Shown here: one piece after another, positions 1 through 58,081 of the stretch | Layout: every line of letters starts with the position of its first letter | How positions within the stretch are numbered: the stretch's first letter is position 1 | Assembly (NCBI GenBank): GCA_947589105.1 | Contig: CANQBL010000001.1 | Location: 131,973 to 195,972 of the forward strand | From: an uncultured Bacilli bacterium | GTDB taxonomy: Bacteria > Bacillota_I > Bacilli_A > RF39 > UBA660 | Direction of reading: 5' to 3' | Length of the DNA: 64,000 nucleotides | Notes under the pieces: generated by a model | The model's database searches: none | Told to the model about the DNA's origin: nothing | Seen by the model: only the letters and a program-made list of their open reading frames with translations | Made by a program: the position numbers and the translations under genes

Positions 1-705
1 CCGGATTCTATAATAAAAAAATCTTTATCATCCGGAATTGATAAGCTAATTATAAATGGATATGATTTAAAAAGTAGTATGGAAGCTGTTTATCTTGCAC
101 AAAAATATGAAAATATTTATGCTGCAGTAGGTATTGGACCAGAAAATATAGATAATCTTGATAGTGATGTTTATGAAAAGTTAGATAAATTAGCAACTTC
201 AAGCAAGGTTGTTGCAATAGGGGAAATAGGGTTGGATTATTATTGGACAAAGGAAAATAAAAAAATTCAATTAGATGTTTTTAAAAATATGCTAAACATT
301 GCTAAAAAACATAAATTACCTGTTATAGTTCACTCAAGAAAAGCATTTTTAGATTCATATAATATATTAAAAGAATATAATATTAATGGGATATTACATT
401 GCTACTCCGGCAGTGTTGAAATGGCTAAAAAATTTATTAAATTAGGTTTTCTACTAGGGATAGGAGGTGTGGTTACTTTTAAAAATGCAAAAGAACTAAT
501 AAACGTAGTAAAAGAAATAGATTTAAATTATTTATCTTTGGAAACAGATAGTCCTTATCTATCTCCAGAGCCTTATAGAGGAAAACCAAATAAGCCTGAA
601 AATATTATCCTAGTAGCTCAAAAAATTGCAAAAATAAAAGGTATTTCAGTAGAAGAAGTTATTAGTACAACAGGCAATTCTGTTTGTGCCAAATTTGACT
701 TATAG
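1..705 (+). CDS. tatD: TatD-family metal-dependent hydrolase/DNase, 5'-partial (frame is open to the window start)
   Basis: The frame continues upstream of the annotated ATG at 79. It shows a TatD-like TIM-barrel and sits upstream of a 3D-domain protein and ksgA, as B. subtilis yabD does. Confidence 0.75.
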   Translation, partial: PDSIIKKSLSSGIDKLIINGYDLKSSMEAVYLAQKYENIYAAVGIGPENIDNLDSDVYEKLDKLATSSKVVAIGEIGLDYYWTKENKKIQLDVFKNMLNIAKKHKLPVIVHSRKAFLDSYNILKEYNINGILHCYSGSVEMAKKFIKLGFLLGIGGVVTFKNAKELINVVKEIDLNYLSLETDSPYLSPEPYRGKPNKPENIILVAQKIAKIKGISVEEVISTTGNSVCAKFDL

Positions 706-760
706 TGGTATTTATGATATTCTTAATAAGACCCATGTAATTGGGTTATGAGGTGAAAGT

Positions 761-1357
761 GTGAAACATTTAAATAGAAAAATTAAGGGTGCATTATTAA
801 TCCTTGCGGTTTGTTTAATAGCATTTGTTGGTTTTTCAAAAGCTGGAATATTGTTTTCAGCTGGTGGTGGTGATGTAATTACAGTCTCAACTACAAAAAA
901 AACGTTTGAGCCTAATAATTATATTGCATCGGTTTCTTCTATTTCTACACCAACTAAACAAGAAACATCAGTCGAAGAATCTACGACTACAAAAATAGTA
1001 ACCACTACAGTAGCTACAACAACTAATCTTAAAAGTAATTGGGCAGGTGTAGTTCTTTCAAAATCTAAAGGTGCTATTATTGGGCCTTCAGGTAAAGAAA
1101 CATATTATAATTTAAATATGACAAACGTAATAAAAATTATGAGACGAGCAGGCTACTCCGAAGAAGAATATCCTTATTGGATTCGAGAAGATGGTGTTAA
1201 AATGCTTGGAAATTATGTTATGGTAGCGGCTAATTTTGAAATACGTCCGCGTGGAACTATAATTGAAAGTTCATTAGGATACGCAATAGTTTGTGATACG
1301 GGAGGATTTGCGAAGTCAAACCCAACTCAAATTGATGTTGCAGTTTCTTGGCGGTAA
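761..1357 (+). CDS. Secreted 3D-domain protein (YabE/YocH-like cell-wall-binding protein)
   Basis: N-terminal signal peptide/TM and a Thr-rich linker. The C-terminus carries a 3D-domain signature (GYAIVCDTGGF...IDVAVSW). It lies between tatD and ksgA, as yabE does. Confidence 0.55.
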   Translation: MKHLNRKIKGALLILAVCLIAFVGFSKAGILFSAGGGDVITVSTTKKTFEPNNYIASVSSISTPTKQETSVEESTTTKIVTTTVATTTNLKSNWAGVVLSKSKGAIIGPSGKETYYNLNMTNVIKIMRRAGYSEEEYPYWIREDGVKMLGNYVMVAANFEIRPRGTIIESSLGYAIVCDTGGFAKSNPTQIDVAVSWR

Positions 1358-1423
1358 TTTTAAATTTGTGTTAAAATAAAAACAAATAAATTAATTTATT
1401 TGTTTTTTTGTACAGGAGCAATT

Positions 1424-2248
1424 ATGGATATAAAAAAGATTCTAAAAGAAAATGAATTTGTTTTTAAAAAAAAGTATGGTCAAAACTTTTTGCTAGATCA
1501 AAACATATTAAATAATATTGTTAATTTAGGTAATATAACAAAAGATACCCTTGTAATAGAAATAGGGGTAGGAGCTGCGGCATTAACAAAAAAAATAAGC
1601 GAAAAAGCAAAGCAAGTATTAGGTTATGAAATAGATTTAAATTTAAAAAAACCATTAGATAAAATTCTTGAAGAATATAAAAACGTTGATGTTATTTATG
1701 ATGATTTTTTAAATCGTAACATAAAGGAAGATATAAAAAAATATCAGTATAAAAATATTATGGTTGTAGCAAACCTCCCATATTATATTACAACACCAAT
1801 TATAACAAAGTTTATTGATGAAAAAATAAATGTAGAAAAAATCATTGTAATGGTTCAAAAAGAAGTAGCTGATAGATTTTCCGCTATGCCAGGTACGAAA
1901 AACTATAACTCATTAACCATCTTTTTAAATTATTATTTTGATGTAAAAAAAGCATTTTTTGTTTCTAGAAATGTTTTTTATCCAAAACCAAACGTTGATT
2001 CTGCCGTGGTCGTTTTTAATAAAAAACAAGAAAAATTAAAGCTAAATAATGAAACGCATTTTTTTAAACTTGTTAAGACGGCTTTTACCCAAAAAAGAAA
2101 AACGTTAAAAAACAACTTAATAGACTATGATTTAAATAAGGTTAATAATATATTAAAAACTTTTAATAAAGATATAAATCAAAGAGCAGAAAATATTACG
2201 ATAGAGGAATTTGTTAAAATTTCAAACGAGTTAAGTAAAGAAAAATAA
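1424..2248 (+). CDS. rsmA: 16S rRNA (adenine1518/1519-N6)-dimethyltransferase RsmA/KsgA
   Basis: Motif FKKKYGQNFLLD and a SAM-methyltransferase fold. Start moved to the ATG at 1424, which has AGGAG at 1414-1418; the track's TTG at 1400 has no RBS. Confidence 0.9.
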   Translation: MDIKKILKENEFVFKKKYGQNFLLDQNILNNIVNLGNITKDTLVIEIGVGAAALTKKISEKAKQVLGYEIDLNLKKPLDKILEEYKNVDVIYDDFLNRNIKEDIKKYQYKNIMVVANLPYYITTPIITKFIDEKINVEKIIVMVQKEVADRFSAMPGTKNYNSLTIFLNYYFDVKKAFFVSRNVFYPKPNVDSAVVVFNKKQEKLKLNNETHFFKLVKTAFTQKRKTLKNNLIDYDLNKVNNILKTFNKDINQRAENITIEEFVKISNELSKEK

Positions 2249-2298
2249 AAATAAGATATATTTTATAGATGATTTTTTAAAAGGGATGTAAGATTATT

Positions 2299-2733
2299 AT
2301 GATAGGAATTAGCTTTGAAGTACCAAATAAATATGATGTTTTTCTTTCAAAAATACTTAAAAATGTAGATTTTGAAGAAGGTGTTTGGAAGGTGGTTAAT
2401 GATGAAGTTCTTAGTGAAAGAGGAACTAATTTCTTTAATAAAGAAATTTATTTAAACGACGAATTTAAAGAACTGATAAAAACTACTCATTATCCGATTT
2501 TTTTAACACTTCAGCTATATAATAAAAGTGATAGATTTAATGAAATTAAAAGTTACGATGATTATTTTAATAGTGATTGTAAGTTATTACTTATTATAGT
2601 AGATAATACTTTTATTGATGTATATTCAAAAGATAAAACAATTTTAAAACAGATAAAAGTTAATGCTAAAGAAAATAGTTTTATAAATATTAAAGATATA
2701 GAAAACAAAGAAGACTTTTCTCTTTATTATTAA
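2299..2733 (+). CDS. Hypothetical protein (144 aa), no recognised domain
   Basis: Clean ORF between ksgA and yabG with RBS-like GGGATG upstream. No motif recognised. Confidence 0.4.
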   Translation: MIGISFEVPNKYDVFLSKILKNVDFEEGVWKVVNDEVLSERGTNFFNKEIYLNDEFKELIKTTHYPIFLTLQLYNKSDRFNEIKSYDDYFNSDCKLLLIIVDNTFIDVYSKDKTILKQIKVNAKENSFINIKDIENKEDFSLYY

Positions 2734-2750
2734 TTTAAACATAAATTAAA

Positions 2751-3554
2751 ATGCTAAACGATAGAATGTTTAGTTTTTTTTTGCATATATTTAATTGGGT
2801 GATAATATTGTTTAAAGTAGGAGATTTAGTTACAAGAATATCGCATGATAATGACGTAGTTTTTAAAATAGAAAAAATAGAATCCGAAGTGGCTTTTTTA
2901 AAGGGAGTTAATGTTCGATTGTGTGCCGATAGTAATATAAGTGATTTAATCTTAGTAGAAACAAAAAATACTGATGAGGATCGGATATTTTATGAGAAAT
3001 TAGAAAAAATAAGAAATTTTGAAAGAAGCGATTATTTTTATATTCCAGGAAAAATTCTTCATGTTGATGGAGATAGAGAATACCTAAACAGATGTTTAGA
3101 TTTTTATAAAAAAGCTAATGTACTGGCATTTGGAGTTTATTCCCCAGAGAATGAAATGGCTCAAAACATCGAAAAGTATTTAGATGATATAAATCCGGAT
3201 ATTGTTGTTATAACTGGTCATGATTCTGAAATAAAGAAAAATTCAAAATATTTTTCCGAAGCTGTAAAAGCGTGTCGTAAGTATCAAAAAGATTATGACA
3301 AATTGATAATAATTGCTGGAGCTTGTCAATCAGATTACGAACGTCTTATAAAAGCGGGTGCAAATTTTGCATCCAGTCCTAAGAAAATAAATATACATGC
3401 ACTTGATCCAGCAATTATTGCCTTATCTCTTAGTTTATCTGATAAAAATAAAAACGTTGATTTACTATCTCTTCTTGAAAAAACAAGTAATGGTAAAGAC
3501 GGTATTGGTGGGGTTAATACAAGAGGCGTTATGACAACTGGTTATCCTAGGTAA
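2751..3554 (+). CDS. yabG: Sporulation-specific protease YabG
   Basis: 267 aa. Conserved ITGHDS...IIAGACQSDYE segment typical of the YabG peptidase (U57). Synteny ksgA-yabG-veg. Confidence 0.8.
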   Translation: MLNDRMFSFFLHIFNWVIILFKVGDLVTRISHDNDVVFKIEKIESEVAFLKGVNVRLCADSNISDLILVETKNTDEDRIFYEKLEKIRNFERSDYFYIPGKILHVDGDREYLNRCLDFYKKANVLAFGVYSPENEMAQNIEKYLDDINPDIVVITGHDSEIKKNSKYFSEAVKACRKYQKDYDKLIIIAGACQSDYERLIKAGANFASSPKKINIHALDPAIIALSLSLSDKNKNVDLLSLLEKTSNGKDGIGGVNTRGVMTTGYPR

Positions 3555-3564
3555 AGGAGAATAA

Positions 3565-3771
3565 ATGATAAACGAAATAAAAAGAAAAATGAAATATCTT
3601 AAAGGAAAAAAAATAAAAATTTACGTAGATGTAGGAAGAAATAAAAGTGAGGTTTATGAGGGTTTTGTTTTAAATACATACAAAAATATTTGGACATTTA
3701 AAACTGATACAGATGTAAAAAGTTTTGGTTATTCAGATATTTTAATTAATACTGTTATTATAAGTTCATAA
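3565..3771 (+). CDS. veg: Veg protein (biofilm/sporulation-associated small protein, DUF1021)
   Basis: 68 aa. SFGYSDILINTVII resembles B. subtilis Veg SYSYADILTETVEL. It follows yabG. Confidence 0.7.
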   Translation: MINEIKRKMKYLKGKKIKIYVDVGRNKSEVYEGFVLNTYKNIWTFKTDTDVKSFGYSDILINTVIISS

Positions 3772-3788
3772 GATATGAACTTTTTTTT
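3764..3788 (+). terminator. Rho-independent terminator after veg
   Basis: GTTCATA-aga-TATGAAC stem overlapping the veg stop, followed by T8. Confidence 0.6.
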
Positions 3789-3859
3789 GTTGTTTGTTGA
3801 TTTTTCTTCTTATTTGTGGTTAAATTAAAGTGTATATACTAAGATGGAGGATTGACGCA

Positions 3860-6800
3860 ATGAACTCGAGAATGGAAAAGTTTAAAATAAGTTTTAAAGA
3901 TTGGTTAGCTATACAAAAAATAAGAATAAAAAATTTTGTTGAAGAGCATAAATATATATCTTCGTTTATTGGTGTATTTTTGATATCTTCTTTAGTTGCT
4001 TTAATAGTATACGCTGCTGATACAGATAAATATGCTGGTCAAGTTTCGGCTACTGCGTCGGTAACTCAAAAAAGCTCACAATCAACAGAAGAAATAACAA
4101 CTGCTAAAAGTTTTAGTACCATAGTGTACGATGTTGATTATTTGTTATCGATAAGTGATTTGCCTATGGATGAAACAGTTGTAAGGGACGAGGTTGTAGT
4201 CCAAGCCTCTTTTAATGATAAAATCGATGCTGAATGGGTTACATATAATGATATAACCTCAAATTATGAGTTATCAGATGATGGTAGAACTTTAACCGTA
4301 AAACTATATGGAGGTACCAAAGTTGGAACTTCAAACAGTTTGCAATTATATTTAAACACAAGAAACATACCTAATGGTACCGAGTTAAAAACAAACTTTA
4401 AAATCAAAGAATCAACCTCATCAAATTTTACTGAACTTGGAGAAAAAAAGATAACAATAGAAAGTGAAAAAGTTGATTTAGAAACAAAAGTGGTTTCTGG
4501 AACCGCTTATAAATCAAATGATTATAGCGAAGGAAGGTATGCTCCTTTTGGAATATTAGTAGGTTTTGATAAAAGTAAATTGAAAAACCAAAATAGTTTA
4601 GAAGGTTTATATTTTGATTCAAACGTAAGTGTTATTTTAGAAGCAATTCAATCAGTTAATAATGTTAACACTCAAATAGAACTTGAAACTGAAAAACAAC
4701 AATATTTTGGCTTATATGATAAATCAACAGGTTTACTAGGTTCAATGCCTCATTATCAAAGGGATGTTTCTGATTTTTCAGTTTATAACTCAGGAACAGT
4801 TAAAAACCTTACAAAATCAAATAGTGGAGTATCAGGAGAAGTAACTGAAAATACAAATCCAGATTTATATTTAATTGGTGATAAAACAATAAACTTAGAG
4901 CAAGGAGAAGAATACACTGAATATGGTGTATCAGCAACAGATCATGGCTATGATATATGTAAAGAAAGAAATAATTTATGTAAGAAAACGATAACCAAAA
5001 AAGGTAATGGTGAAACTTCAGTTGAAGAAAAAAATATAACTAAAGAAGTTGGAGATTATGTTGTTAGTTATGAGTATACCTCGAAAACAGGTGTTACAAC
5101 GGTTAAAAGAAACGTCAAAGTAACCTCAAAAACAACCGTTAGTGTAGGAGAGGATTCTTATTCATTAAATGGTAATAAAGAAATCACTTTGGTAAAAGGT
5201 GAAAAATATGAAGAAAAAGGTATTAGTAAAAACGGTGTTAATGCTTCGGAATACGAGATATCTATTAAAAAGAATGGTTCGGAAGACCCAATAGAATCGG
5301 TTAATACTAATGAAGTTGGTACTTATACCATTACTTACACGATTAAATCTCAGCCAGAGTTCCAACAACAATCAGCAACTTTAACAAGAACGGTTAAGGT
5401 TGTTGAAAGTTTGACTTATACAAAAGCTCCAACTCTTACTGCAAGCACTATTTACGCACCGTCTGATGGTTCTGTTCTTGATAATCCTTATATAAAAATA
5501 GATTCTCAAGATAAAGAATGTAATTCTGAAAATAAATGTTCGGTAAAATATTATGATCTAGCCTCAAATGAGGAAGTACACTTTGATAAAACAAAGGTAG
5601 GTACTTATAAAGCAGTTTATACGGTAACTGATGAAAATGGTTTTGAAATACAAGCTGAAAATACCATTAACATACAAACTAAATATGATTTTAACATTGA
5701 AGGAATAAAATCAGATGGAAAAATAGATTTGTATGGTGATAATTTTGTTTCACTTGGTTCATATTTTGTAAATGCAAAATCAATTCGTAATGAAGGAGTA
5801 ACAACAGACATTTTAGTAAATTTAACTGCAAGTATTAAAAAAGCAGATGGCGGATTTAACTCTAGTACATCAGATAAAGCTGCTGTTAATAAAAATTATT
5901 CTGCAGGAACGAAAAATAATACACTTTCTTTTAATACTGATGAATCTGGAGATTTACAACGATTATCTAGTAATGATTATTTAGCTTACGGTGAAGAAGT
6001 AATACTAAGATCTAGGTTTACTTATTCAAATGATGGTGATGAGGCGATTAATAAGTTAACAACTACTATTCCAATTTTACCGTTTACAATGGTTGAATAT
6101 ACTTCTAGAATTGAAGATAAAGAACCATACTATATTAATGAAGAATATAATGATAAGGTAAATGTTAAGTATTATGCATGTGAAGTTGATGATTCAAAAA
6201 CAGCTTGTAGTGATTCTGAAGTATCTGAATATGATTCATTTGCTTCATTAAATGATGCTTTAAACTCAAACGAAAATCTTAAATTGTCTTATTTAACTTA
6301 TACATTAGAAAATGTTGCACCAGGATCAATAATTGATTTTAGAGTTAGATTAGTTACTAGTGTTAATAACCAAAAAGATATAATAACTTTAACAACTAAA
6401 TCAGAATATGATGAAAAAGGAGAAAGTAGTTTATCAAATCCTACGGCAATAACTGGTAACGCTTCTATAAATATAACCCCTTTTAAAGCAAGAACAAGAG
6501 TGTATATTGATGAAATGGAGCAAGATGTCATAATAAATGGTGCTAATACTTCTAGCTCTACATGGTCAATATATCCTTCTGTTAGTTTACCGATAGAAGA
6601 GATAAATACTAACGCGGCTGGAATAAATGCGCTAAAAACAGTTACAATTACAGTTGAATTGCCAGAAGGTATTAATTATGTATATGACGAAAGATACAAT
6701 ATACCAAAAGTAAGTGGCAGAACTTTAACATATGTTTTAGAAGGTAAAAAAGTTAATGAATGGATAGATCCTATTTACTTTGTTACAAATTATAATATTG

Positions 6801-8323
6801 ATATTCCTTCTGGAACTGAAAAAGAAGTAAAAGTATTAATTGATGCCGAAACTCCTGATGGTATAAAGGATTCTTCTACTAAAGATTTAAGAACGACGAT
6901 AAGGAAAATAACTTATCAAAATAATGAGAAAATAGCACGTTCACAGTATACAACCACTCCAACAATATCAAAGGAGACCCCTTTTAATATAAGTACAAAA
7001 ATTTATAATAATGATAGTGCTAAAGTTTCACACTCAAATTTGGATATTATAACTTTGCTTCCTTATAATGATATAAGTAATGAAAATAAGACTTATACTG
7101 GAACGTACACAATTTCAAATCTACCTCAAAATACTTTATGTACGGCAGGTCTTCCAAGTTTGATAAAAGACTCTAACTTGCTTTCAGAAGGTGAAATTAT
7201 ATGGGAAGATTGTACTAAATATAAAATAGAAAATAATAGTTACTCTGGGGTTACTGCAATTAAGATTCCATCTATATCTTTACAATCAGATCAAACCTAT
7301 GAACATTCTATAACAATTACTCCTTTTGGAAATAAATCTGATGATAAATATACATTAAAATCTTACTTAGTAATGAATGAAGATAACAGAGTAAGACAAT
7401 TTAATGATGTAACAGTAGAGGTTTTTAGTAAAAAAATAACTGGTATTGTATGGGAAGATTTTGATGATAATGGAATCATGGATAATGAAGAAAAAAGAAT
7501 TTCTGATGTAACTTTAAAATTGTATGATTCTAATACCAATGAGTTTATAACATCAACTCTTTCTGATAAAACTGGAAATTATACTTTATCTGATTTAAAT
7601 CCTGGCACATACTACGTTGTTGCTGAGTACAATACTGCTAAATATGGTTTAACTCAGCCAAATGCATCTTATAATAGGTCAGTTTCTTCTTCGTTTAGCT
7701 CTGTTGATACTGGTATTTCATCTAAAGGTGACGAAATAATAAGTAAAGAAGATAAAAAATTAGAAGATTCACCAACTACTGCAGTAATTAAAACTGATAA
7801 CATTACAATAACTAATGATACTAAAATTGTTAGTGATATTAACTTAGGATTATCACTTAAAAAATCTTATGCGGTAAAATTAACGAAATATGTAAGTAAA
7901 GTTATAACAACAAATAATCTTGGTATTTCAACCATAAAGGACTATGGTAATGTTTCATTGGCTAAGTTAGATGTAAAGGATATAAATAATCTTAGTATAA
8001 AAGTAATTTATACCATAGAATTAGAAAATGTTGGATATTATCCTGGTTATATTTATGCCATAAGAGATTATATTCCTGATGGAATGAAATTTAATGAATC
8101 TTACGAAGAAAATAAGGGCTGGGTAGTAACAAAAGATGATTATTTGGAAAATGATACTTTATCAAATGAATTAGTATATGAAGGAGATAAAAAATATCTT
8201 ACTATAGCTTTTGATATAACTCGTAAAGAGGCCGGATCATTTATTAATTTTGCTTCTGTAGAGGATGATGATTTGCAAATCTTAAGTGTAGCAGCAAATC
8301 AAGGAGGTAATGATAATGAATAA
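3860..8323 (+). CDS. Giant cell-surface protein (about 1487 aa): N-terminal signal-anchor TM, three tandem Ig-like DUF5011-type domains, a CnaB/SdrD-B-type domain, C-terminal DUF11 repeat domain
   Basis: Start set at the ATG at 3860 (GGAGGA plus 8 nt). TM segment FIGVFLISSLVALIVYAA. Three repeats of about 95 aa share the pattern G(D/E)xxYxLxxGxxYxExGxSAxD. CnaB-like segment GIVWEDFDDNGIMDNEE...LKLYDSNT...TGNYTLSDLNPGTYYV. DUF11-like segment LSIKVIYTIELENVGYYPGYIYAIRDYIPDGMKF. No LPXTG. Confidence 0.7.
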   Translation: MNSRMEKFKISFKDWLAIQKIRIKNFVEEHKYISSFIGVFLISSLVALIVYAADTDKYAGQVSATASVTQKSSQSTEEITTAKSFSTIVYDVDYLLSISDLPMDETVVRDEVVVQASFNDKIDAEWVTYNDITSNYELSDDGRTLTVKLYGGTKVGTSNSLQLYLNTRNIPNGTELKTNFKIKESTSSNFTELGEKKITIESEKVDLETKVVSGTAYKSNDYSEGRYAPFGILVGFDKSKLKNQNSLEGLYFDSNVSVILEAIQSVNNVNTQIELETEKQQYFGLYDKSTGLLGSMPHYQRDVSDFSVYNSGTVKNLTKSNSGVSGEVTENTNPDLYLIGDKTINLEQGEEYTEYGVSATDHGYDICKERNNLCKKTITKKGNGETSVEEKNITKEVGDYVVSYEYTSKTGVTTVKRNVKVTSKTTVSVGEDSYSLNGNKEITLVKGEKYEEKGISKNGVNASEYEISIKKNGSEDPIESVNTNEVGTYTITYTIKSQPEFQQQSATLTRTVKVVESLTYTKAPTLTASTIYAPSDGSVLDNPYIKIDSQDKECNSENKCSVKYYDLASNEEVHFDKTKVGTYKAVYTVTDENGFEIQAENTINIQTKYDFNIEGIKSDGKIDLYGDNFVSLGSYFVNAKSIRNEGVTTDILVNLTASIKKADGGFNSSTSDKAAVNKNYSAGTKNNTLSFNTDESGDLQRLSSNDYLAYGEEVILRSRFTYSNDGDEAINKLTTTIPILPFTMVEYTSRIEDKEPYYINEEYNDKVNVKYYACEVDDSKTACSDSEVSEYDSFASLNDALNSNENLKLSYLTYTLENVAPGSIIDFRVRLVTSVNNQKDIITLTTKSEYDEKGESSLSNPTAITGNASINITPFKARTRVYIDEMEQDVIINGANTSSSTWSIYPSVSLPIEEINTNAAGINALKTVTITVELPEGINYVYDERYNIPKVSGRTLTYVLEGKKVNEWIDPIYFVTNYNIDIPSGTEKEVKVLIDAETPDGIKDSSTKDLRTTIRKITYQNNEKIARSQYTTTPTISKETPFNISTKIYNNDSAKVSHSNLDIITLLPYNDISNENKTYTGTYTISNLPQNTLCTAGLPSLIKDSNLLSEGEIIWEDCTKYKIENNSYSGVTAIKIPSISLQSDQTYEHSITITPFGNKSDDKYTLKSYLVMNEDNRVRQFNDVTVEVFSKKITGIVWEDFDDNGIMDNEEKRISDVTLKLYDSNTNEFITSTLSDKTGNYTLSDLNPGTYYVVAEYNTAKYGLTQPNASYNRSVSSSFSSVDTGISSKGDEIISKEDKKLEDSPTTAVIKTDNITITNDTKIVSDINLGLSLKKSYAVKLTKYVSKVITTNNLGISTIKDYGNVSLAKLDVKDINNLSIKVIYTIELENVGYYPGYIYAIRDYIPDGMKFNESYEENKGWVVTKDDYLENDTLSNELVYEGDKKYLTIAFDITRKEAGSFINFASVEDDDLQILSVAANQGGNDNE

Positions 8324-10415
8324 TAAATTAAAAAAAATATTATCTTTATTTGTATTAATAATAGTAACCTTCTTTATTTTTAATGATTCTTTAATTGCAG
8401 CTACCGCTCAAATACGATATGTAAAACCAACCTCAGCCAAAAATTTTCCAAATTTATCATATACTTTAAAAAGTGGTAGTAAAACAATATCAACTAAAAA
8501 TATTCAGCAATTTGCATTTATGTACAAAGATACTGCTTCTCAACAAGTTTATTGCGTAGAGCCAGATGCCCAATTAATAAATAGTGGCACTCATAATACT
8601 GGTTCTTTAGCAGATTATAATGGGAAATATATAAATACTGCCGATAAAAAAACTTTACTACAATACGTTTTAACCTTCGCACCGAAGTTAGCAAACGTAA
8701 CAACTAAAGTATCATTAGCAGATACTTCTAAAGTACTCGCAGCTCAAGCTTTAATTTGGCAAATTGGAGTAGGAGAAGTTAAATTTAATACTAATAAAAC
8801 AAAATTATCGCTTTCTGGAGATTTTTATAATAAAATAAAGAGTAATACAAATAGTGATGTTAAGAAAATTTATAGTGAGTATAACACAATTGTAACGTCG
8901 GTTAACGAAACATTTTTAAGTGCTCCAACAGGTTTTGGTACGGCATCTAAATGTGATACGGTAGCATTATCTTATGATTCAAAAACAGGTAGTTTTACTA
9001 AAACAATAAACTCAACAAAGTTTCAGTATTATGATGTATCTACTTCTCAAAATGGATTAACCATATCTAAAACTAAAAATTCAATAACTATTTCTAGTAA
9101 AGCTCCAATTAATCAAACAAATGCTAAGAGTGTTAAAATAAGTGTTCATAATAAAAATAAAGGAACTGCTCAAGCTTTTTACCATACATCACAACAGGAC
9201 GTTGTTTCAATAGTTGGTACAACTTTGGATAGATATATAAAAGTATATACACCAAAGTATCAATTAAAAATTACTAAAACTGCATCACTTGATGGCAAAA
9301 AACTAAGTGGGGTTAAGTTTAATGTCTATAATGATAATAAGTGCACAACTTTATTAGGTACCATTACAACAGATAAAAATGGAGAAGCTACATATCAAAA
9401 TATACCAGCTCCCGGCACATATTGTTTAAAAGAAGTAAAATCATCAACACCAGCTGGTTACGAAGAAAACTCAGAATCAATTTCAATAAAGGTAAACGAT
9501 TCAGATATTGCTGGTTCAAAAAGTTATGCTGCTAAAACTATAACTAATAAAAATAAAGAATTTAATTTAACTAAAAAAACAATAGATGAAAATGGTAAAG
9601 TTGTTACTCTTAACGATGGATGTGGAACAAATAATTATACCGGACCAGAGTTTGAGATTAAAGAAGGTACAAATAATTTGTATTTTAAGGAAATAAAACC
9701 TGGATATTATGACATTTCTAGTAAAGATACCGAAGGTGCGACAACAAAGCTTAAAACTTGTAATGGAGAGTTTAAAGTATATACGTTACCTAATTGTAAT
9801 TACACAATATCAGAAACTAAAGCACCAGAAGGGCTTACTTTACCATCGGAGCCAACAAAATCTGTAAATGTTTGTGGAGCAGATAAAAACGTATCTTTCA
9901 CAAATGGTTTCGCGGGATTAGAGTTTCAAAAAAAAGATGAAGATGGTAATTTTGTAGAAGGTGGTAAATTTTCTCTTCAGAAAAATATAAATAATATTTA
10001 TCGTGATATTCTATTAAAGCAAGTAAAAGAAGGATATTATATATATGATGCTAATTTAAAGGAATCTGATAAAGATGCAACATATTTAATTCTTACCGAC
10101 CAAGGAATGGCTCATATTACAAAGTTGCCTCCTGGAGAGTATAGAATTGTTGAAAAGGAAGCTCCAGAAGGTTTTGAACTTATTCAAGATAAGGATTCAA
10201 AAGCTATAGTAACTATAAAAGACAGTGATAAAAATGGTTATTATATAGTAGAAATGATTGACCAAAAAGTTAAGAAAAATGGAAGTGATTCTTCTGCAGA
10301 ACTAGTAGTAACAATTACTACAGGAAGAAAAGTTCCTAATTATATATTTATAATATCTGCTTTATTAGTTACGTTAATAGTAGTTATAATTTTAAGAAAA
10401 AGGGTAAAAAAATAG
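8316..10415 (+). CDS. Secreted surface protein (about 699 aa) with a candidate thioester-like N-terminal domain, two CnaB/SpaA prealbumin-fold domains, and a C-terminal TM plus basic tail
   Basis: Translationally coupled to the upstream gene by a 14-nt overlap. Start set at the ATG at 8316 (GGAGG plus 8 nt). Signal peptide present. Candidate thioester residues YCVEP and AAQALIW. SpaA/CnaB-like segments KFNVYNDNK...DKNGEATYQNIPAPGTYCLKEV and KFSLQKN...LPPGEYRIVEKEAPEGF. C-terminus IFIISALLVTLIVVIILRKRVKK without LPXTG. Confidence 0.65.
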   Translation: MNNKLKKILSLFVLIIVTFFIFNDSLIAATAQIRYVKPTSAKNFPNLSYTLKSGSKTISTKNIQQFAFMYKDTASQQVYCVEPDAQLINSGTHNTGSLADYNGKYINTADKKTLLQYVLTFAPKLANVTTKVSLADTSKVLAAQALIWQIGVGEVKFNTNKTKLSLSGDFYNKIKSNTNSDVKKIYSEYNTIVTSVNETFLSAPTGFGTASKCDTVALSYDSKTGSFTKTINSTKFQYYDVSTSQNGLTISKTKNSITISSKAPINQTNAKSVKISVHNKNKGTAQAFYHTSQQDVVSIVGTTLDRYIKVYTPKYQLKITKTASLDGKKLSGVKFNVYNDNKCTTLLGTITTDKNGEATYQNIPAPGTYCLKEVKSSTPAGYEENSESISIKVNDSDIAGSKSYAAKTITNKNKEFNLTKKTIDENGKVVTLNDGCGTNNYTGPEFEIKEGTNNLYFKEIKPGYYDISSKDTEGATTKLKTCNGEFKVYTLPNCNYTISETKAPEGLTLPSEPTKSVNVCGADKNVSFTNGFAGLEFQKKDEDGNFVEGGKFSLQKNINNIYRDILLKQVKEGYYIYDANLKESDKDATYLILTDQGMAHITKLPPGEYRIVEKEAPEGFELIQDKDSKAIVTIKDSDKNGYYIVEMIDQKVKKNGSDSSAELVVTITTGRKVPNYIFIISALLVTLIVVIILRKRVKK

Positions 10416-10436
10416 CAAATTATTGCTATTTTTTTG
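10406..10436 (+). terminator. Rho-independent terminator after the surface-protein operon
   Basis: A-tract, then TAGCAA-atta-TTGCTA stem including the stop codon, then T7. Confidence 0.55.
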
Positions 10437-10487
10437 TATTATATGGTAAAATTAAGTTGTTAAATAATAACTAAAAGGAGAGTTTAT

Positions 10488-10745
10488 ATGGAAATAACTA
10501 GTGTATCAGTTCAAAAAGAAACTAAAGAAAATTCCAGAATGATAGGTTATGCAGAGATAATTTTTGATGATTGTTTAAAGGTAAATGGTATTAGAATAAT
10601 AAAAGGAAATACAAAAATTTTTGCAGCAATGCCAAATAAAAAGTTACAAGATGGAAAATATAAAGACTACGTTCATCCAATTAATTCAGAATTAAGGAAA
10701 AAAATAGATGAAGCTATAGAAGAAGCTTATAATAAAGCGGAATAA
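10488..10745 (+). CDS. spoVG: Septation/sporulation regulator SpoVG
   Basis: 85 aa. IRIIKGNTKIFAAMPNKK...YKDYVHPINSELRKKIDEAI closely matches the SpoVG family. Confidence 0.9.
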   Translation: MEITSVSVQKETKENSRMIGYAEIIFDDCLKVNGIRIIKGNTKIFAAMPNKKLQDGKYKDYVHPINSELRKKIDEAIEEAYNKAE

Positions 10746-10772
10746 TATGGTAGTATATTATTCTTTTTTTTT
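10740..10772 (+). terminator. Rho-independent terminator after spoVG
   Basis: Perfect 9-bp stem GAATAATAT-ggtagt-ATATTATTC followed by T9. Confidence 0.6.
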
Positions 10773-10796
10773 AATATAATTTATCAGGAGGTCTTT

Positions 10797-11087
10797 ATGG
10801 ATAAAGATACTGATAAAGAGGAATTAATGAATCATAATATAGTGATTACGCAAAGACAAAATGTAACAATTAGTGGTATAACAAAAATAGAAAGTTTTGA
10901 TAGTGAAGAGTTTATTCTTGAAACGAATAGTGGACCATTAGGCATTAAAGGAAGAGAACTTGAGATAGTAAAATTAGATACCTATGATGGTACTATTGTT
11001 ATAAAAGGTATTATAGATGGTTTTTCTTATTTAGATGTTGGTAAGAGTAGAAAAGAAGATTCTATGATATCGAGGTTATTTAAATAA
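10797..11087 (+). CDS. yabP: Sporulation protein YabP
   Basis: KIESFDSEEFILET matches B. subtilis YabP HVDSFDSEEFLLET. 96 aa. Followed by yabQ and divIC. Confidence 0.85.
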   Translation: MDKDTDKEELMNHNIVITQRQNVTISGITKIESFDSEEFILETNSGPLGIKGRELEIVKLDTYDGTIVIKGIIDGFSYLDVGKSRKEDSMISRLFK

Positions 11088-11359
11088 TGAATTTAGAAAG
11101 TCAATTTAAAGTAATTTTTTATTCATTTATATATGGAATGTTTTTTGTGGCAACTTTTAAAGTGTTTAAAATGATAAAGATTAAAAAAATCTTCTTAAAA
11201 GTATTATTTGAACTATTATTTTGTTTTTTTCATGTAATTGTCTTTTATTCATTATTATATAGGATTGATTATGGAATCCTTAACTATTATATTGTGTTTT
11301 TTTTAATAGTTGGAGGGTCTTTTTGTCAATTATTTTACTTTAAAGACAAAAATACCTAG
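11087..11359 (+). CDS. yabQ: Spore cortex biosynthesis membrane protein YabQ
   Basis: 90-aa polytopic membrane protein immediately after yabP with overlapping stop/start. Conserved yabP-yabQ-divIC synteny. Confidence 0.65.
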   Translation: MNLESQFKVIFYSFIYGMFFVATFKVFKMIKIKKIFLKVLFELLFCFFHVIVFYSLLYRIDYGILNYYIVFFLIVGGSFCQLFYFKDKNT

Positions 11360-11409
11360 AAAATTTCTTTTTTTAATTATATAATGGATTATATAATGGA
11401 GATGGTATA

Positions 11410-11700
11410 ATGAATAACAAATTAAAAGAACGTAAACGAAGAAGAGTAGTATTAACTTCAATATTTTGTTTTTTTATAATATCGTTATCTGTTATTTTTT
11501 CAATTGGAAATGCCTTTAAAATAAGAGAAAAAACTAAAGAAAAAAAGCAATTAATTACAGAATTAGAAAATCTTCAGGAAGAAGAAAAAATTCTTTCTGA
11601 TGATGTAGAAAAATTAAAAAATCCAGAATATGCTGCAAGATATGCTAGGGAAAAATATTTATACTCTAAAAACGGAGAAAAAATACTAAAAATAGATTAA
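11410..11700 (+). CDS. divIC: Cell division protein DivIC/FtsB (septum formation initiator)
   Basis: One N-terminal TM followed by a coiled coil (ELENLQEEEKILSDDVEKLKNPEYAARYAREKY). Synteny. Confidence 0.75.
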   Translation: MNNKLKERKRRRVVLTSIFCFFIISLSVIFSIGNAFKIREKTKEKKQLITELENLQEEEKILSDDVEKLKNPEYAARYAREKYLYSKNGEKILKID

Positions 11701-11720
11701 CAAGGTTTTCCTTGTTTTTT
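11701..11720 (+). terminator. Rho-independent terminator after divIC
   Basis: CAAGG-tttt-CCTTG then T6. Confidence 0.5.
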
Positions 11721-11744
11721 GCGTTTTAATGTGATTTAATACTT

Positions 11745-12143
11745 ATGGATGTGAAGAAAGTGAATATAAGTGAAATAAACATAGGGGTTTTAGCATATTT
11801 AGGTGATACGATATATGAAAATTATGTAAGACGCTTTTTAATAAATCAAAACGTTAGTAAGGTTAATGATTTGCAGAAAGCGGCAGTTAAATATGTTAGT
11901 GCTGTTAGTCAAGCTAAATTTTTAAACAATATGTTAGATAGCAACTTTTTTACTGAAGAAGAAATTAATGTTATCAAAAGATCTAGAAATTATAAGAGCA
12001 AGTCTCATCCTAAAAATTGTGACATAATAACTTATAAATATGCAACTGCATTAGAGGCATTAATTGGCTATTTGTCATTATCAGATAGGGAAGAAAGAAT
12101 TAAAGAAATTATGGGGAATATTTTTTATGAACAAGTTTGTTAA
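11745..12143 (+). CDS. mrnC: Mini-ribonuclease 3 (Mini-III, 23S rRNA maturation)
   Basis: LAYLGDTIYENYVRRF motif (Mini-III LAYLGDAVYE). 132 aa. Position upstream of rlmB-sigH matches B. subtilis yazC. Confidence 0.8.
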   Translation: MDVKKVNISEINIGVLAYLGDTIYENYVRRFLINQNVSKVNDLQKAAVKYVSAVSQAKFLNNMLDSNFFTEEEINVIKRSRNYKSKSHPKNCDIITYKYATALEALIGYLSLSDREERIKEIMGNIFYEQVC

Positions 12144-12819
12144 ATATTTTTTAATTACGTTTATAATTATTATTTTGTTATTTGTAATTGTAAGTATTAT
12201 TTATTACTTTGTTCCTAAAAAAGTATATTCAGCTAGTGATTTTGAAATAGAAGTTCTTAAATCTAGTTATGATTATGATAATGATGGTATCGATGATTAT
12301 ACTGATATTATGTTAGGAGCAAGAAAGGATGCTAAAAAACATCCCAGGTACGATAGTAGTTATGTTGCAGGAGGTTATCCAAAAGATGACGTTGGGGTAT
12401 GTGCTGATACTGTATGGAGAGCCTTTAAAAACGCGGGTTATTCGTTAAAAGATATGATTGACTTAGATACGTTAAACAACCCTAGTGATTATTTTTCTAA
12501 AGGAGAAAAAAGGGATACTAATATTGATTTTAGAAGAGTTAGAAATCTTAAGGTATTCTTTGATAAATATGCCTATTCTCTAACTTTAAATCCTAAAGAA
12601 ATAGAAGCTTGGCAACCAGGAGATATTGTTATTTTTGGAAATAATTATAGTCATGTTGGAATTTTATCTGATAAGCGTAACAAATATGGTGTGCCCTATT
12701 TAATCCATAACGCAGGACAGCCAAAAAGAGAAGAAGATGCTTTAATTATGTGGGCCAATAATAAAACGATAACCGGACATTATCGTTGGGACGGAGGATA
12801 TTATGATAGTATATGGTAA
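12127..12819 (+). CDS. Membrane-anchored DUF1287-family protein
   Basis: Start set at the ATG at 12127 (MNKFVKYF); the track's upstream extension overlaps mrnC. N-terminal TM, then GVCADTVWRAFKNAGY and IVIFGNNYSHVGILSD motifs typical of DUF1287. Confidence 0.55.
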   Translation: MNKFVKYFLITFIIIILLFVIVSIIYYFVPKKVYSASDFEIEVLKSSYDYDNDGIDDYTDIMLGARKDAKKHPRYDSSYVAGGYPKDDVGVCADTVWRAFKNAGYSLKDMIDLDTLNNPSDYFSKGEKRDTNIDFRRVRNLKVFFDKYAYSLTLNPKEIEAWQPGDIVIFGNNYSHVGILSDKRNKYGVPYLIHNAGQPKREEDALIMWANNKTITGHYRWDGGYYDSIW

Positions 12820-13507
12820 AAACGTAGCTAAAGAAGTTTTAAAAAGTGGAAAAAATGTTGAAAAGATAATTTTAAAGGATAGTTTTGATGATAAAGAAGT
12901 GTTTTCACTAATGAAAAATAGAAATTTACCAGTAGAAAAATTAACTAAAAAGGAATTTTCCAAATTTGATAAATATCCTCATCAGGGTATAATTTTGTAC
13001 GTTGAAGATTTTAAATACACCGATTTATTGAGCCTAATAGAAAATGAATCTTCTTTGTTAATAATATTAGATCATTTAGAGGATCCTCATAATTTAGGAG
13101 CTATTATAAGGACATGCGAGGCTGCAGGGGTAGACGGTATAATTATTCCTAAGGATAGAAGTGTTGAGGTAAATTCTACGGTTATGAAAACTAGTGCTGG
13201 TGCTATAGAAAACGTTAGGATTGCTCAAGTGGTTAATTTAGGCCAAACTATAAAAAAATTAAAAGAAAATGGTTATTGGATTGTGGGTACTGATATGGAA
13301 AATAGTACTGATTATTGTAAAATAGATTATAGTGGCAAAATAGCTTTAGTAATAGGAAGTGAAGGTTTTGGAATGAGTAGTTTAGTTAAAAAAAACTGTG
13401 ATTTTATAGCTCGAATTCCAATGTATGGAAAAATAAATAGTTTAAATGCTTCAGTTGCAGCAGGAATAATGATATATGAAGTAGTAAGACAAAGAAATAA
13501 TAAGTAG
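12803..13507 (+). CDS. rlmB: 23S rRNA (guanosine-2'-O)-methyltransferase RlmB (SpoU/TrmH family)
   Basis: SpoU motifs DHLEDPHNLGAIIRTCEAAG and IALVIGSEGFGM. Position before sigH, as B. subtilis yacO. Confidence 0.85.
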   Translation: MIVYGKNVAKEVLKSGKNVEKIILKDSFDDKEVFSLMKNRNLPVEKLTKKEFSKFDKYPHQGIILYVEDFKYTDLLSLIENESSLLIILDHLEDPHNLGAIIRTCEAAGVDGIIIPKDRSVEVNSTVMKTSAGAIENVRIAQVVNLGQTIKKLKENGYWIVGTDMENSTDYCKIDYSGKIALVIGSEGFGMSSLVKKNCDFIARIPMYGKINSLNASVAAGIMIYEVVRQRNNK

Positions 13508-13517
13508 GGGGGATTTA

Positions 13518-14135
13518 ATGAAAAAACAATACGAGGACGACTTTGAGTTATTATATATGATTTCTGATAGTAATGAGCAAGCAACAGAAATTTTATTTAA
13601 AAAATACGAAGCCGTAATTGATTACTATGCCAAAAGGTATGCTCCGCTTATCGAAGGTAAAGGAATAGATTATAACGATCTATATCAGGAAGGTTTAATT
13701 GGACTTGATTCAGCAATAAAAGGATATAAAGATCAAAAAGATATAAAATTTTCTACTTTTGCCTTTGTATGTATTAAAAGAAAAATAATAACGGCGGTAA
13801 AGCAAGCAAACCGTAAAAAACACAGCATATTAAATGAATCTTATTCTATAGATTATCATAATGATGATGATGACAGGAATGGTTTTGAAAACGTAGTTTA
13901 TACTAATGATGGAGGAATAGAAGATCTTTTAGTAAGTAAGGAAAATACCGAAAACTTTAACAAAAGACTTAAAGAGGAACTAACACCTTTTGAAAAACAG
14001 GTGTACGAATTAAGATTGTATGGTTTTAATTATGATGAAATATCTAGAAATTTAAGAAAGACAACAAAATCAATAGAAAGTGCTTTATTTAGGATAAGAA
14101 TAAAGTTAAAAAAAATATTAAACGAAATAAATTGA
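13518..14135 (+). CDS. sigH: RNA polymerase sporulation sigma factor SigH
   Basis: Sigma-70 region 2 (YNDLYQEGLIGLDSAIKGY) and region 4. Located between rlmB and secE-nusG, as in Bacillus. Confidence 0.85.
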   Translation: MKKQYEDDFELLYMISDSNEQATEILFKKYEAVIDYYAKRYAPLIEGKGIDYNDLYQEGLIGLDSAIKGYKDQKDIKFSTFAFVCIKRKIITAVKQANRKKHSILNESYSIDYHNDDDDRNGFENVVYTNDGGIEDLLVSKENTENFNKRLKEELTPFEKQVYELRLYGFNYDEISRNLRKTTKSIESALFRIRIKLKKILNEIN

Positions 14136-14215
14136 CTATTTTAAAAGTTTGTGCTACTATCTAATTAGTAAGCACGAAAAGTGTTTTTTATTTTGAAATA
14201 ATAGGAGATAGTTAC

Positions 14216-14434
14216 ATGGTAAAGAAAAACAAAAAGAAAAACCTGTTTATATTTTTATCTGATTTTTTCAAAGATGTAAAAAAAGAATCCGCAAAGGTTA
14301 TGTGGACTTCTAAAAACAATTTGTTAAAATATTCGATAGCAACATTGGCATTTATGATTTTTATATGCATATTCTTTGTTGGAACAGATTTAATTATTGC
14401 ATTATTAACATATGTAAAGGAGTTAATTAGTTAA
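14216..14434 (+). CDS. secE: Preprotein translocase subunit SecE
   Basis: 72 aa, single C-terminal TM, KVMWTSKNNLLKYSIA motif, immediately upstream of nusG. Confidence 0.85.
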   Translation: MVKKNKKKNLFIFLSDFFKDVKKESAKVMWTSKNNLLKYSIATLAFMIFICIFFVGTDLIIALLTYVKELIS

Positions 14435-14435
14435 G

Positions 14436-14972
14436 ATGGAAGAAAAAAAATGGTACGTTGTTAATACTTACTCAGGACATGAGTCTAAGGTAAAAGAAAA
14501 ATTAGATATGAGAATTAATTCTATGGAAATGCAAGAAAACATATTTAGGGTAATTGTTCCTGAAAGAAAAGAAGTAGAAATAAAAGACGGTAAGAAAAAA
14601 GAAAAAATAAAAAAATTGTTTCCAGGATATGTTTTGGTAGAAATGATTATGTCAGATGAATCTTGGTATATTGTTCGTAACACCCCTGGTGTTACAGGCT
14701 TTTTAGGATCATCTGGTAAAGGAGCTAAACCAGTTCCTTTATATGATGAGGAAGTAGAAAGAATATTTAAAGAAATTGGTTATACCGGTGACAACGTAGT
14801 TGTAAATTATGAAATAGGTGATAACGTTAAGATAACTGATGGGCCATTTAAGATGCTTGCTGGTAAGATTACTGAAATCAATACTGATAAAGGTACGGCA
14901 AACGTTATAATCGACTTATTTGGACAAGAAACTAACGTTGAGTTAGAACTTACTCAATTTACAAAAGAATAA
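14436..14972 (+). CDS. nusG: Transcription termination/antitermination factor NusG
   Basis: NGN domain (WYVVNTYSGHE) and C-terminal KOW. Synteny secE-nusG-rplK. Confidence 0.95.
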   Translation: MEEKKWYVVNTYSGHESKVKEKLDMRINSMEMQENIFRVIVPERKEVEIKDGKKKEKIKKLFPGYVLVEMIMSDESWYIVRNTPGVTGFLGSSGKGAKPVPLYDEEVERIFKEIGYTGDNVVVNYEIGDNVKITDGPFKMLAGKITEINTDKGTANVIIDLFGQETNVELELTQFTKE

Positions 14973-14985
14973 AAGTAAAAAACTC

Positions 14986-15015
14986 TTGCTTTTATCATAT
15001 ATGCTGTGATAAAAT
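14986..15015 (+). promoter_or_regulatory. Candidate sigma-A promoter for rplK-rplA
   Basis: TTGCTT, then an 18-nt spacer, then TGaTAAAAT (extended -10). Confidence 0.35.
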
Positions 15016-15130
15016 TAATGCGCAGCTATATTTTATATAGATGATGAAAGAAAATTAGTGGAAGGCGCGGATTTAAAAATAAAAGCTATTTGACCACTCG
15101 CGAAAAAATAATATATAGGAGGTGTTTTTC

Positions 15131-15556: not shown

Positions 15557-15642
15557 TAAAAAAGAAAAAAATTTAAATTAAATTTCATATAGATTTATCT
15601 ATGTGGGAGGAAAATCCGCTTATACCACAAGGAGGTAAGAAA

Positions 15643-41656: not shown

Positions 41657-41730
41657 TTCAACTATTGTTATAATATAATGGATTTTATATCTATGACTTA
41701 TTTTAAGTCATGGCGAAAGGAGCTAAAAGT

Positions 41731-56119: not shown

Positions 56120-58081
<1,962 letters not shown>

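Follow-up and report, generated by a model that had tools for sequence, protein, structure and literature searches.

The 64-kb stretch of the uncultured Bacilli contig described here (the window, in what follows) carries two overlapping genes, designated G1 and G2, that occupy the interval between veg and spoVG and probably constitute a cell-surface adhesion operon. The parts of the operon described below lie on the + strand. G1 (3860-8323, stop codon at 8321-8323) is an open reading frame (ORF) of 1487 amino acids (aa), and G2 (8316-10415) is an ORF of 699 aa that overlaps the end of G1 by 8 nucleotides (nt). These are the two ORFs described in an earlier reading of this stretch (the original prediction), and gene calls made independently on the public contigs yield identical products. 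The left neighbor is Veg (PF06257, E 2e-12) and the right neighbor is SpoVG (PF04026, E 1.4e-26). The gene order runs tatD, a gene for a 198-aa protein, ksgA, DUF2691, yabG, veg, G1, G2, spoVG, yabP, and yabQ, and continues beyond yabQ with divIC, mini-RNase III, DUF1287, rlmB, sigH, secE, nusG, rplK, and rplA. The G+C content of the operon (0.27-0.31) falls in the same range as that of the window (28.7%; mean 0.287).

The operon is flanked by an intrinsic terminator on either side. That of veg (3762-3788; stem 3762-3782 plus a T-run) parts veg from the operon, and its stem folds at -7.1 kcal/mol (z -3.2 against shuffled sequences); that of the operon (10408-10440; stem 10408-10433 plus a T-run) follows G2 just upstream of spoVG and folds at -8.8 kcal/mol (z -3.8 against the same kind of control). 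Both hairpins were overlooked by a simple scan because their stems are A+T-rich. The conservation of these and other elements was followed in related genomes collected by a SpoVG scan with one genome per species, which returned 17 loci, all from uncultured metagenome-assembled genomes (MAGs), and hence 18 loci with the window. Because the search was seeded with the SpoVG peptides of the window, its reach is limited to relatives with SpoVG of at least about 65% identity. The hairpin and T-run after veg are kept in most of the 18 loci, as is the terminator after G2. The 3′ arm of the latter (TTGCTA) doubles as the -35 element of a promoter-like site before spoVG (10423-10452, with the extended -10 element TGgTAAAAT), an arrangement also kept in most relatives.

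A sigma-A-type promoter (3797-3825) precedes G1, with a -35 element TTGATT at 3797-3802, a 17-nt spacer, and an extended -10 element TGgTTAAAT at 3817-3825. The pattern TTG..(17)..TG.TTAAAT is kept in 18 of 18 orthologous intergenic regions, and the 5′ leader is conserved too; judged from these letters, the operon is probably transcribed from its own housekeeping-type promoter. The ribosome-binding site of G1 (GGAGG, 3846-3850) lies 9 nt before the ATG at 3860, and a GTG at 3830 is a possible alternative start. That of G2 (GGAGG, 8303-8307) falls within the 3′ end of the G1 coding region, 8 nt ahead of the ATG at 8316. Across the 18 loci, G1 and G2 overlap by 8-17 nt in 13 and abut in two; in the other three, the automatic start was placed downstream and the frames overlap. 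Because the genes overlap, their translation is probably coupled, as originally proposed. Two overlapping ORFs, hairpins on either side that exceed shuffled controls, Pfam-confirmed neighbors, and a promoter sequence of its own together establish the predicted operon between veg and spoVG as real, with the boundaries first given for it.

By its sequence and modeled fold, G2 is a class II thioester (TIE-type) adhesin, an assignment upheld by every sequence and fold test that could be run. The original prediction had listed it as a secreted protein with CnaB/SpaA isopeptide-type domains. Those domains stand, and fold, family profile, and invariant residues add an N-terminal thioester domain of about 280 aa that had gone unlisted. 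The protein opens with a Sec-type signal peptide (aa 1-28; 8316-8399) comprising KLKK, a hydrophobic core, and a predicted LIA/A cleavage site whose A28 is nearly invariant. The thioester domain (aa 30-312; 8403-9251) is followed by three CnaB/SpaA isopeptide domains (aa 316-651; 9261-10268), which match SpaA in three stretches with E 6e-29. An AlphaFold2 model built on 45 homologues, which are 35-67% identical overall, reproduces the thioester domain and the three CnaB domains with a mean predicted local distance difference test score (pLDDT) of 86.9. The top fold match of G2 in the PDB (Foldseek) is full-length BaTIE (6fwv, E 1.8e-26 over 673 columns), and the G2 family profile compared with PDB sequences finds BaTIE (6fwv) at E 2.2e-17 and SaTIE-TED (6fx6) at E 4e-4.

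The residues expected of such a protein are in place. Class II thioester domains are defined by the motifs [YFL]C-phi-zeta, phi-Q-zeta-phi-phi, and TQxx-phi-W (PMC6194298), and the thioester and isopeptide residues of G2 fit the published definitions. Cys80 (8553-8555, in YCVE) is invariant in all 45 homologues and is always preceded by Y or F. Gln294 (9195-9197, in Q-D-V-V) is likewise invariant (45/45) and sits inside the beta-strand region 215-311 of the model. Gln144 and Trp148 (A-A-Q-A-L-I-W) are equally without exception in the 45, with the Thr of TQxx-phi-W, a motif of the helix adjacent to the bond, replaced by Ala. In alignment, C80 of G2 falls on the BaTIE sequence AYC and Q294 on the BaTIE sequence VQN. 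A CnaB-type domain pairs a Lys of its first strand with an Asn or Asp of its last and has a catalytic Glu. The isopeptide triads K321/E373/N(D)411, K420/E500/N530, and K539/E613/D(N)649 are also kept in every homologue; the Lys and Glu of each are invariant and the third position is N or D. The Cys80-Gln294 thioester and the Lys-Asn/Asp isopeptide bonds are predicted to form on this basis, and the modeled CnaB folds and conserved triads agree with what the original prediction had expected from structure prediction.

The closest known architecture is that of BaTIE (B. anthracis BA5258, 6fwv) and of the other class II TIEs SaTIE and EfmTIE86. G2 and BaTIE share a part order of signal peptide, class II thioester domain, three CnaB-type domains, unstructured linker, hydrophobic helix, and basic tail, at a sequence identity of about 16%. 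BaTIE ends in LPATG and is anchored by sortase (PMC6194298), whereas G2 carries an invariant TI(T/I)TGR. Unlike that of BaTIE, the gene of G2 resides at a fixed core locus, where a giant gene invariably lies upstream and overlaps it.

That giant gene, G1, encodes a chain of about a dozen beta-sandwich domains. Its AlphaFold2 model, which covers aa 1-1200 (pLDDT 83.7), is an N-terminal helix followed by all-beta structure, with nothing enzyme-like; with the thioester domain and three CnaB domains of G2, this bears out the original expectation of adhesin folds instead of enzymatic ones. The unusually well conserved N-terminus (aa 1-53; 3860-4018) combines a basic N-region, KDWFxIQxIRxxNFxKEHKY, with a hydrophobic helix of 19-20 aa and a [V/A]xA site at A52; the model places helices at aa 2-29 and 31-53. 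The site at A52 is kept in 18 of 18 orthologues, and H30, K31, F40, and A52 are invariant. The signal-anchor originally proposed is confirmed as a hydrophobic N-terminal helix, but given the conserved A52 site, this segment may be either a long cleavable signal peptide or a signal-anchor. The beta-rich region that follows (aa 56-336; 4025-4867) has beta strands throughout the model and no Pfam or NCBIfam match even at E 10, and it is a candidate for the ligand-binding end. Three tandem PF16403 (formerly DUF5011) Ig-like stretches (aa 337-606; 4868-5677; E 6.5e-21) lead into a beta-sandwich string (aa 607-1190; 5678-7429) that is all-beta save for a short helix at 794-803 and finds no Pfam family. 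A Foldseek comparison of the G1 model with the PDB returned generic multi-Ig chains only (mastigoneme, alpha-2-macroglobulin, and integrin legs, at a template-modeling score of about 0.1) and was uninformative on the N-terminal region.

The C-terminal end of G1 consists of an SdrD_B (CnaB-type) domain (aa 1192-1294; 7433-7741), which matches PF17210 with E 1.5e-15 and S. aureus SdrD in the PDB with E 2.4e-9, and a DUF11/CLIPPER-like (CnaA-type) domain (aa 1320-1471; 7817-8272). DUF11, lately renamed CLIPPER, was shown to be an isopeptide domain of the CnaA type that occurs in fibrillar adhesins (PMC12617251). At 21.0 bits (E 4.5e-4), the match of G1 to DUF11 (PF01345) falls short of the curated threshold of 24.6. 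Over 287 aa, the module as a whole is 30% identical (E 1e-25) to the end of P0100, which is 1443 aa long and has unmistakable DUF11 repeats; the other domains of P0100 reach 71 bits with TIGR01451. This homology, in spite of the sub-cut-off score, marks the G1 domain as a divergent relative, for which the term CLIPPER-like is used here. Of the domains first listed for G1, the three Ig-like repeats and the CnaB-type domain hold as described, and DUF11 holds as a sub-threshold, homology-backed assignment. Conservation within G1 peaks in the SdrD_B/CLIPPER-like module, where 30-aa blocks are 61-81% identical across the 18 orthologues; a homologous SdrD_B plus DUF11 module is found in P0100, P0101, and P0186. 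In those three proteins an anchoring tail of the G2 type follows directly; G1 ends at this point, with no C-terminal anchor or membrane helix and a short acidic end (8273-8320) that is found in all family members. G1 is built from the families seen in fibrillar adhesins with CLIPPER, SdrD_B, and Ig-like stalks (PMC12617251), and its repeat content differs from species to species, but unlike them it has no recognizable adhesive head and no C-terminal anchor.

The tail of G2 is the most distinctive element of the locus. It comprises a juxtamembrane motif (aa 656-676; 10281-10343), G-S-x-S-S-A-E-L-V-V-T-I-x-T-G-R-x-x-x-N-Y, and a membrane helix with a basic tail (aa 677-699; 10344-10412), in which the helix IFIISALLVTLIVVIIL is followed by RKRVKK. 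Nine positions (G656, A661, E662, I667, T669, G670, R671, N675, and Y676) show no variation among the 45 homologues, and the pre-helix element is found in all 57 members of the G2 family. In the model, aa 654-673 are disordered (pLDDT < 50) and a helix spans aa 675-697. From sequence and model, G2 looks to be anchored in the membrane by its C-terminal helix and basic tail; the original description of a protein that is merely secreted is hence not upheld.

In position, this tail corresponds to a sorting signal. T669-G670 lies 30 aa from the C-terminus and is followed by the helix (aa 677-693) and RKRVKK, a layout of helix and basic tail; sortase substrates are defined by a motif 17-45 aa from the C-terminus (PMC4155245). 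There is no LPXTG in G2, in which the motif reads T-I-T-T-G, and the match to TIGR01167 (LPXTG_anchor) scores 13.3 bits against a cut-off of 15.9, aligned from T-G onward only. NCBIfam scans of the tails of G2, P0100, and P0101 gave weak LPXTG_anchor, GVDTG, and NPXTG matches, and no curated model fits. Like LPXTG and the (S/P)PXTG signals of C. difficile SrtB, the G2 tail combines a T-G motif, a hydrophobic helix, and at least two basic residues; unlike them, it has no Pro before T-G and extends over the longer element A-E-phi-phi-phi-x-I-x-T-G-R/Q. The sortase SrtB of C. difficile cleaves (S/P)PXTG, and the non-Pro sequence NVQTG is not cleaved in vitro (PMC4155245). Beyond the T-G alignment with TIGR01167, a bridge to (S/P)PXTG is offered by giant genes of other lineages (in L024 and L029), whose tails read ...VIITPPTG and ...VTVTPPTG and resemble the C. 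difficile motif. The tail of G2 is most likely, as far as its letters can tell, a sortase-signal-like sorting module that has lost its proline and occupies the position of LPXTG.

A profile of the tail (45 positions) was compared with 1.84 billion cluster representatives at E <= 0.001 and retrieved 153 of them. The 47 below 1e-10 are the G2 family, and the remaining matches lie at the very C-terminal end of other proteins, the longest of which have about 3000 aa. Among 143 new matches, 135 have A-[E/D]-hydrophobic(3)-x-hydrophobic-x-T-G no more than 75 residues from the end, mostly with R or Q as the next residue. The eight tail-bearing proteins that were scanned (P0121, P0138, P0143, P0147, P0152, P0154, P0168, and P0186) have thioester plus SpaA, SpaA-only or multi-SpaA, or SdrD_B plus DUF11 architectures, and none of 10 clusters looked up (0/10) has a name in public annotation. 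Outside the G2 family, large surface proteins of other uncultured organisms, in about 100 clusters (P0100-P0244), bear the G2-type tail. The giant adhesin genes in L024 (1339-18826) and L029 (387-15491) form tight tandem pairs with gaps of 18-21 nt; ...SIRTG or ...TIKTG ends the first member of a pair, and ...PPTG or ...EPTG ends the second. By BLAST, these second members show no similarity to G2, and only the G1 C-terminal module is shared.

An enzyme that would read such a signal is not found close by. No TLxTC motif occurs in any ORF of at least 90 aa within the window or in any ORF of at least 120 aa of the fetched loci, including the 17 related ones (10-20 kb each), and no sortase Pfam family is present among the called genes 10 kb past either window end. 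The lack of a nearby sortase was part of the original prediction and extends to all of these regions. With no sortase in about 84 kb around the locus, the G2 tail may be a mere conserved membrane anchor.

The sortase result also bears on the idea of a pilus-like two-subunit fiber, in which a transpeptidase would cut G2 between T669 and G670 and join it to a lysine of the G1 CLIPPER-like domain, giving a thioester-tipped structure. Conservation in both proteins is highest at the C-terminal end, namely in the last module of G1 and the tail-bearing region of G2, G1 ends where P0100, P0101, and P0186 continue into the tail, the overlap of the genes across the lineage suggests coupled translation, and streptococcal sortases join thioester tip adhesins to pilus shafts (as cited in PMC8092201). 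The locus further resembles sortase-assembled pili with a thioester tip (S. pyogenes Cpa) in that a thioester gene stands beside a long, shaft-like gene with isopeptide domains. It differs from Cpa pili in having no pilus sortase gene, no LPXTG, no pilin motif, and two genes only, and polymerization is not indicated. Given the absence of a sortase from about 84 kb and from 17 related loci, the absence of a recognizable pilin motif in G1, and the presence of the tail on proteins with no G1-like partner in evidence, we regard this fiber as decidedly unlikely. Since the tail occurs on such proteins, it need not be a G1-specific joint.

A physical or covalent joint between G1 and G2 is attractive because G1 stops where its homologues carry the tail and because the C-terminal regions of the two proteins are alike in conservation; it is nonetheless improbable in our estimate. 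The same low standing is given to a more elaborate proposal, that A-E-hydrophobic(3)-x-I-x-T-G-(R/Q) with its helix and basic tail might be an undescribed sorting signal that replaces LPXTG on thioester and isopeptide adhesins of uncultured gut Firmicutes, to be read by a dedicated transpeptidase encoded elsewhere that would join G2 Thr669 to the G1 CLIPPER-like module as a fixed two-subunit, thioester-tipped fiber; this is a long shot. A further candidate, the G2 tail as a strand donor that completes the G1 C-terminal domain in the manner of SpyTag/SpyCatcher, was rejected as the main explanation because the same tail is found on proteins that end in their own SpaA or DUF11 domains with no G1-like partner in evidence, and because G1 residues past the Pfam match can provide the last strand.

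All 17 related species have intact G1 and G2 homologues in the veg-spoVG interval, in the same order and orientation, and no other gene lies in this interval in any of the 18 species. The related MAGs are mostly labeled Bacilli and sometimes Mollicutes, and the titles of their records mention human gut, Hadza, and rabbit among others. Comantemales was considered as a name for the lineage and discarded, since in the literature it belongs to order 4C28d-15 of Firmicutes_A and not to these MAGs. Among 5.8 billion proteins, G2 has 57 homologues, nearly all full-length, and G1 has 34, of which 28 are near-full-length and six reach about 58% coverage; further matches to either protein are domain-only. 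As judged from these searches, both protein families are confined to this lineage, in keeping with the lineage-specificity first proposed. Identity to the window is mostly 59-96% for the flanking genes (spoVG, yabG, nusG, ksgA, and sigH), compared with 30-67% for G1 and 32-68% for G2. The original prediction had named universal conservation of both locus and sequence as evidence that would count against it; presence and position prove universal among detectable relatives, and sequence does not, at 30-68% identity.

These data weigh heavily on the proposal that the locus is a lineage-specific accessory adhesin island, inserted in a core interval and variably present among relatives. The restriction of both families to the lineage and their faster change than the flanks (30-68% against mostly 59-96%) are what such an island would lead one to expect, as is the veg-spoVG interval of B. 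subtilis, which contains other genes. Against it stand the intact and syntenic arrangement in every relative, a G+C content like that of the surroundings, and a promoter kept in 18 of 18 loci and a terminator kept in most. No integrase, transposase, or repeat boundaries are found at the operon, which is bordered by a terminator and a promoter shared among species, and the truly variable genes of the neighborhood are instead DUF2691 (2299-2733) and DUF1287 (12127-12819). The accessory and inserted character originally ascribed to the locus is largely refuted and has become very improbable: within the range of the SpoVG search, the operon is a fixture of the lineage and not an accessory insert. 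DUF2691 occurs only in the window species and L011, and DUF1287 only in the window species with a fragment in L011, in otherwise syntenic surroundings.

The pattern of sequence change differs along the two proteins. In G2, identity per 20-aa block is lowest in the thioester domain (22-48%) and highest in the third CnaB domain and the tail (68-81%). The G1 orthologues of L016 (3997-7554) and L017 (3993-7598), at 1185-1201 aa, are about 290-300 aa shorter than G1 of the window, and in tblastn they leave roughly aa 330-565 and 330-705 of the query, most of the PF16403 region, unmatched; stalk length hence varies between species. The window and L002 represent two strains of one species and differ at 27 amino acids of G1, 19 of which fall in aa 359-568, against at most one amino-acid change in each flanking core gene. 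In this Ig-like segment, the synonymous rate (dS) is 0.059 and the nonsynonymous rate (dN) 0.034, compared with a dS of 0.009-0.016 and a dN of at most 0.004 elsewhere. Such a pattern fits a surface-exposed, exchangeable segment. Positive selection on it is not shown, as the within-species dN/dS is 0.58 and dS is raised too; the joint rise of dS and dN suggests imported or recombined sequence rather than selection alone. A separate cluster of 24 strain differences lies at 2000-2500.

The most apt description of the locus is that of a TIE adhesin whose tail is of a non-LPXTG type, paired with an anchor-less fiber protein; it qualifies neither as a sortase-pilus operon nor as an accessory island. 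We assign a probability of roughly 0.7 to the reading that it is a chromosomal two-gene cell-surface adhesion operon, fixed in an uncultured low-G+C, gut-associated lineage. Under this reading, G2 would act as the reactive head. After export by Sec, its class II thioester domain would hold the predicted internal Cys80-Gln294 thioester, and attack by an amine of the target would yield a permanent amide link to the ligand. The three CnaB-type domains, each predicted to be locked by a Lys-Asn/Asp isopeptide bond, would form a rigid stalk, and the C-terminal membrane helix and basic tail would keep the protein on the cell, with the AELVVTIxTGR element before the helix as a putative processing or sorting signal. 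G1 would be the long companion fiber, with a hypervariable Ig-like segment, a conserved SdrD_B and CLIPPER-like end, and no anchor of its own. The ligand of G2 could be the host, mucus, a food particle, or another microbe. Covalent capture by such a "chemical harpoon" was shown for streptococcal SfbI (PMC4450167, as cited in PMC8092201).

Several points count against the reading of the locus as a gut adhesion operon. The habitat is taken from the titles of related MAG records alone, expression is read from a promoter consensus, and the thioester and isopeptide bonds are predictions from sequence. The match of G2 to the Pfam family TED, at 21.9 bits, lies just under the cut-off of 22. No sortase was found within about 84 kb of sequence spanning the locus. 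An adhesin that is universally kept at a core position is out of the ordinary, and such conservation could indicate a role in envelope structure. Finally, TIE-pLS20, a class II thioester adhesin of tested function, serves bacterial mating and not host binding (PMC8092201).

The last point raises the possibility that G2 is a cell-cell adhesin for aggregation, mating, or biofilm formation rather than a host-binding protein. TIE-pLS20 (gene 34 of B. subtilis plasmid pLS20) resembles G2 in having a class II thioester domain, three predicted Cna-type domains, and no canonical LPXTG; it is needed for mating in liquid, and its function is independent of sortases (PMC8092201). The family of the upstream neighbor Veg is, moreover, named in Pfam for stimulating biofilm formation. 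TIE-pLS20 is, however, plasmid-borne within a conjugation operon, whereas the G1-G2 locus is chromosomal, syntenic, and outside any conjugation operon. TIE-pLS20 also lacks the C-terminal membrane helix and basic tail of G2 and has instead a 250-aa C-terminal region of unknown anchoring mode. A cell-cell function along these lines seems unlikely.

The conserved core position is also the main attraction of a different proposal, that the operon is an envelope-structural or spore module, either as a membrane-to-wall tether formed by the thioester and an amine of the cell's own wall or as a component of the spore surface. Its neighbors yabG, spoVG, yabP, and yabQ are sporulation-related, and if a sortase is indeed lacking, some other covalent link to the wall would be needed. 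The promoter, however, is of the sigma-A extended -10 type and does not follow the consensus of sporulation sigma factors, and such a tether has no known precedent. The thioester domain is, furthermore, the most variable part of G2 (22-48%), as would be expected of a domain that meets a changing external ligand more than of an invariant component of the wall. This proposal is highly improbable.

Thioester adhesins are common in Gram-positive bacteria, and those studied come almost all from pathogens; no other bacterial adhesins are known to form covalent bonds with their targets. A fixed, fast-evolving member in an uncultured gut lineage is a concrete candidate for a factor in gut retention, and the G1/G2 pair provides marker genes for strain tracking. 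If the tail is a real sorting signal, then surface-protein predictions based on LPXTG miss a whole class in gut Firmicutes. An anchored thioester protein encoded with an anchor-less giant fiber also makes a testable case of two-subunit assembly without a locus-encoded sortase. The parts most worth following are the tail motif and the fixed two-gene arrangement.

Genes related to sporulation lie near the operon and further along the window. yabG (2751-3554) is identified by Peptidase_U57 (E 5.6e-83), and a spoIIR-like gene (36131-36658) was recognized by eye from its translation. Together with spoVG, yabP, yabQ, sigH, and bofA (just upstream of the window), these genes suggest that the lineage may form spores despite the "Mollicutes" labels. 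Upstream of tatD lie pth, mfd, and a spoVT-like gene, as seen in positions 1-16000 of the window and in L025, the 10 kb upstream of it. spoVG is directly followed by yabP, yabQ, and divIC, and ispE, purR, yabJ, glmU, and prs are absent from the interval; relative to the gene order of B. subtilis, the region is compacted and rearranged.

Elsewhere in the window, Rfam identifies two ribosomal-protein leaders, L10 at 16380-16514 (70.1 bits) and L31-Firmicutes at 41691-41722 (34.9 bits, just above threshold). A 442-aa protein encoded at 37273-38601 has no Pfam match, an N-terminal hydrophobic segment, and a C-terminus reading ...GLMATGTLGPVLFKKKKRSK, that is, T-G, a very short hydrophobic stretch, and a basic tail. 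After a transfer-messenger RNA (tmRNA) gene (55233-55595, 154.7 bits), in a stretch that extends to 62278 or beyond, come genes for a large serine recombinase with Resolvase and Recombinase matches (56126-58081) and a Mob_Pre relaxase (58260-59651), and then two genes for unknown proteins and one for a DUF2513 protein. Direct repeats that would mark the ends of this element are not present inside the window, and the genes adjoining the tmRNA look like an integrative mobilizable element inserted beside ssrA.

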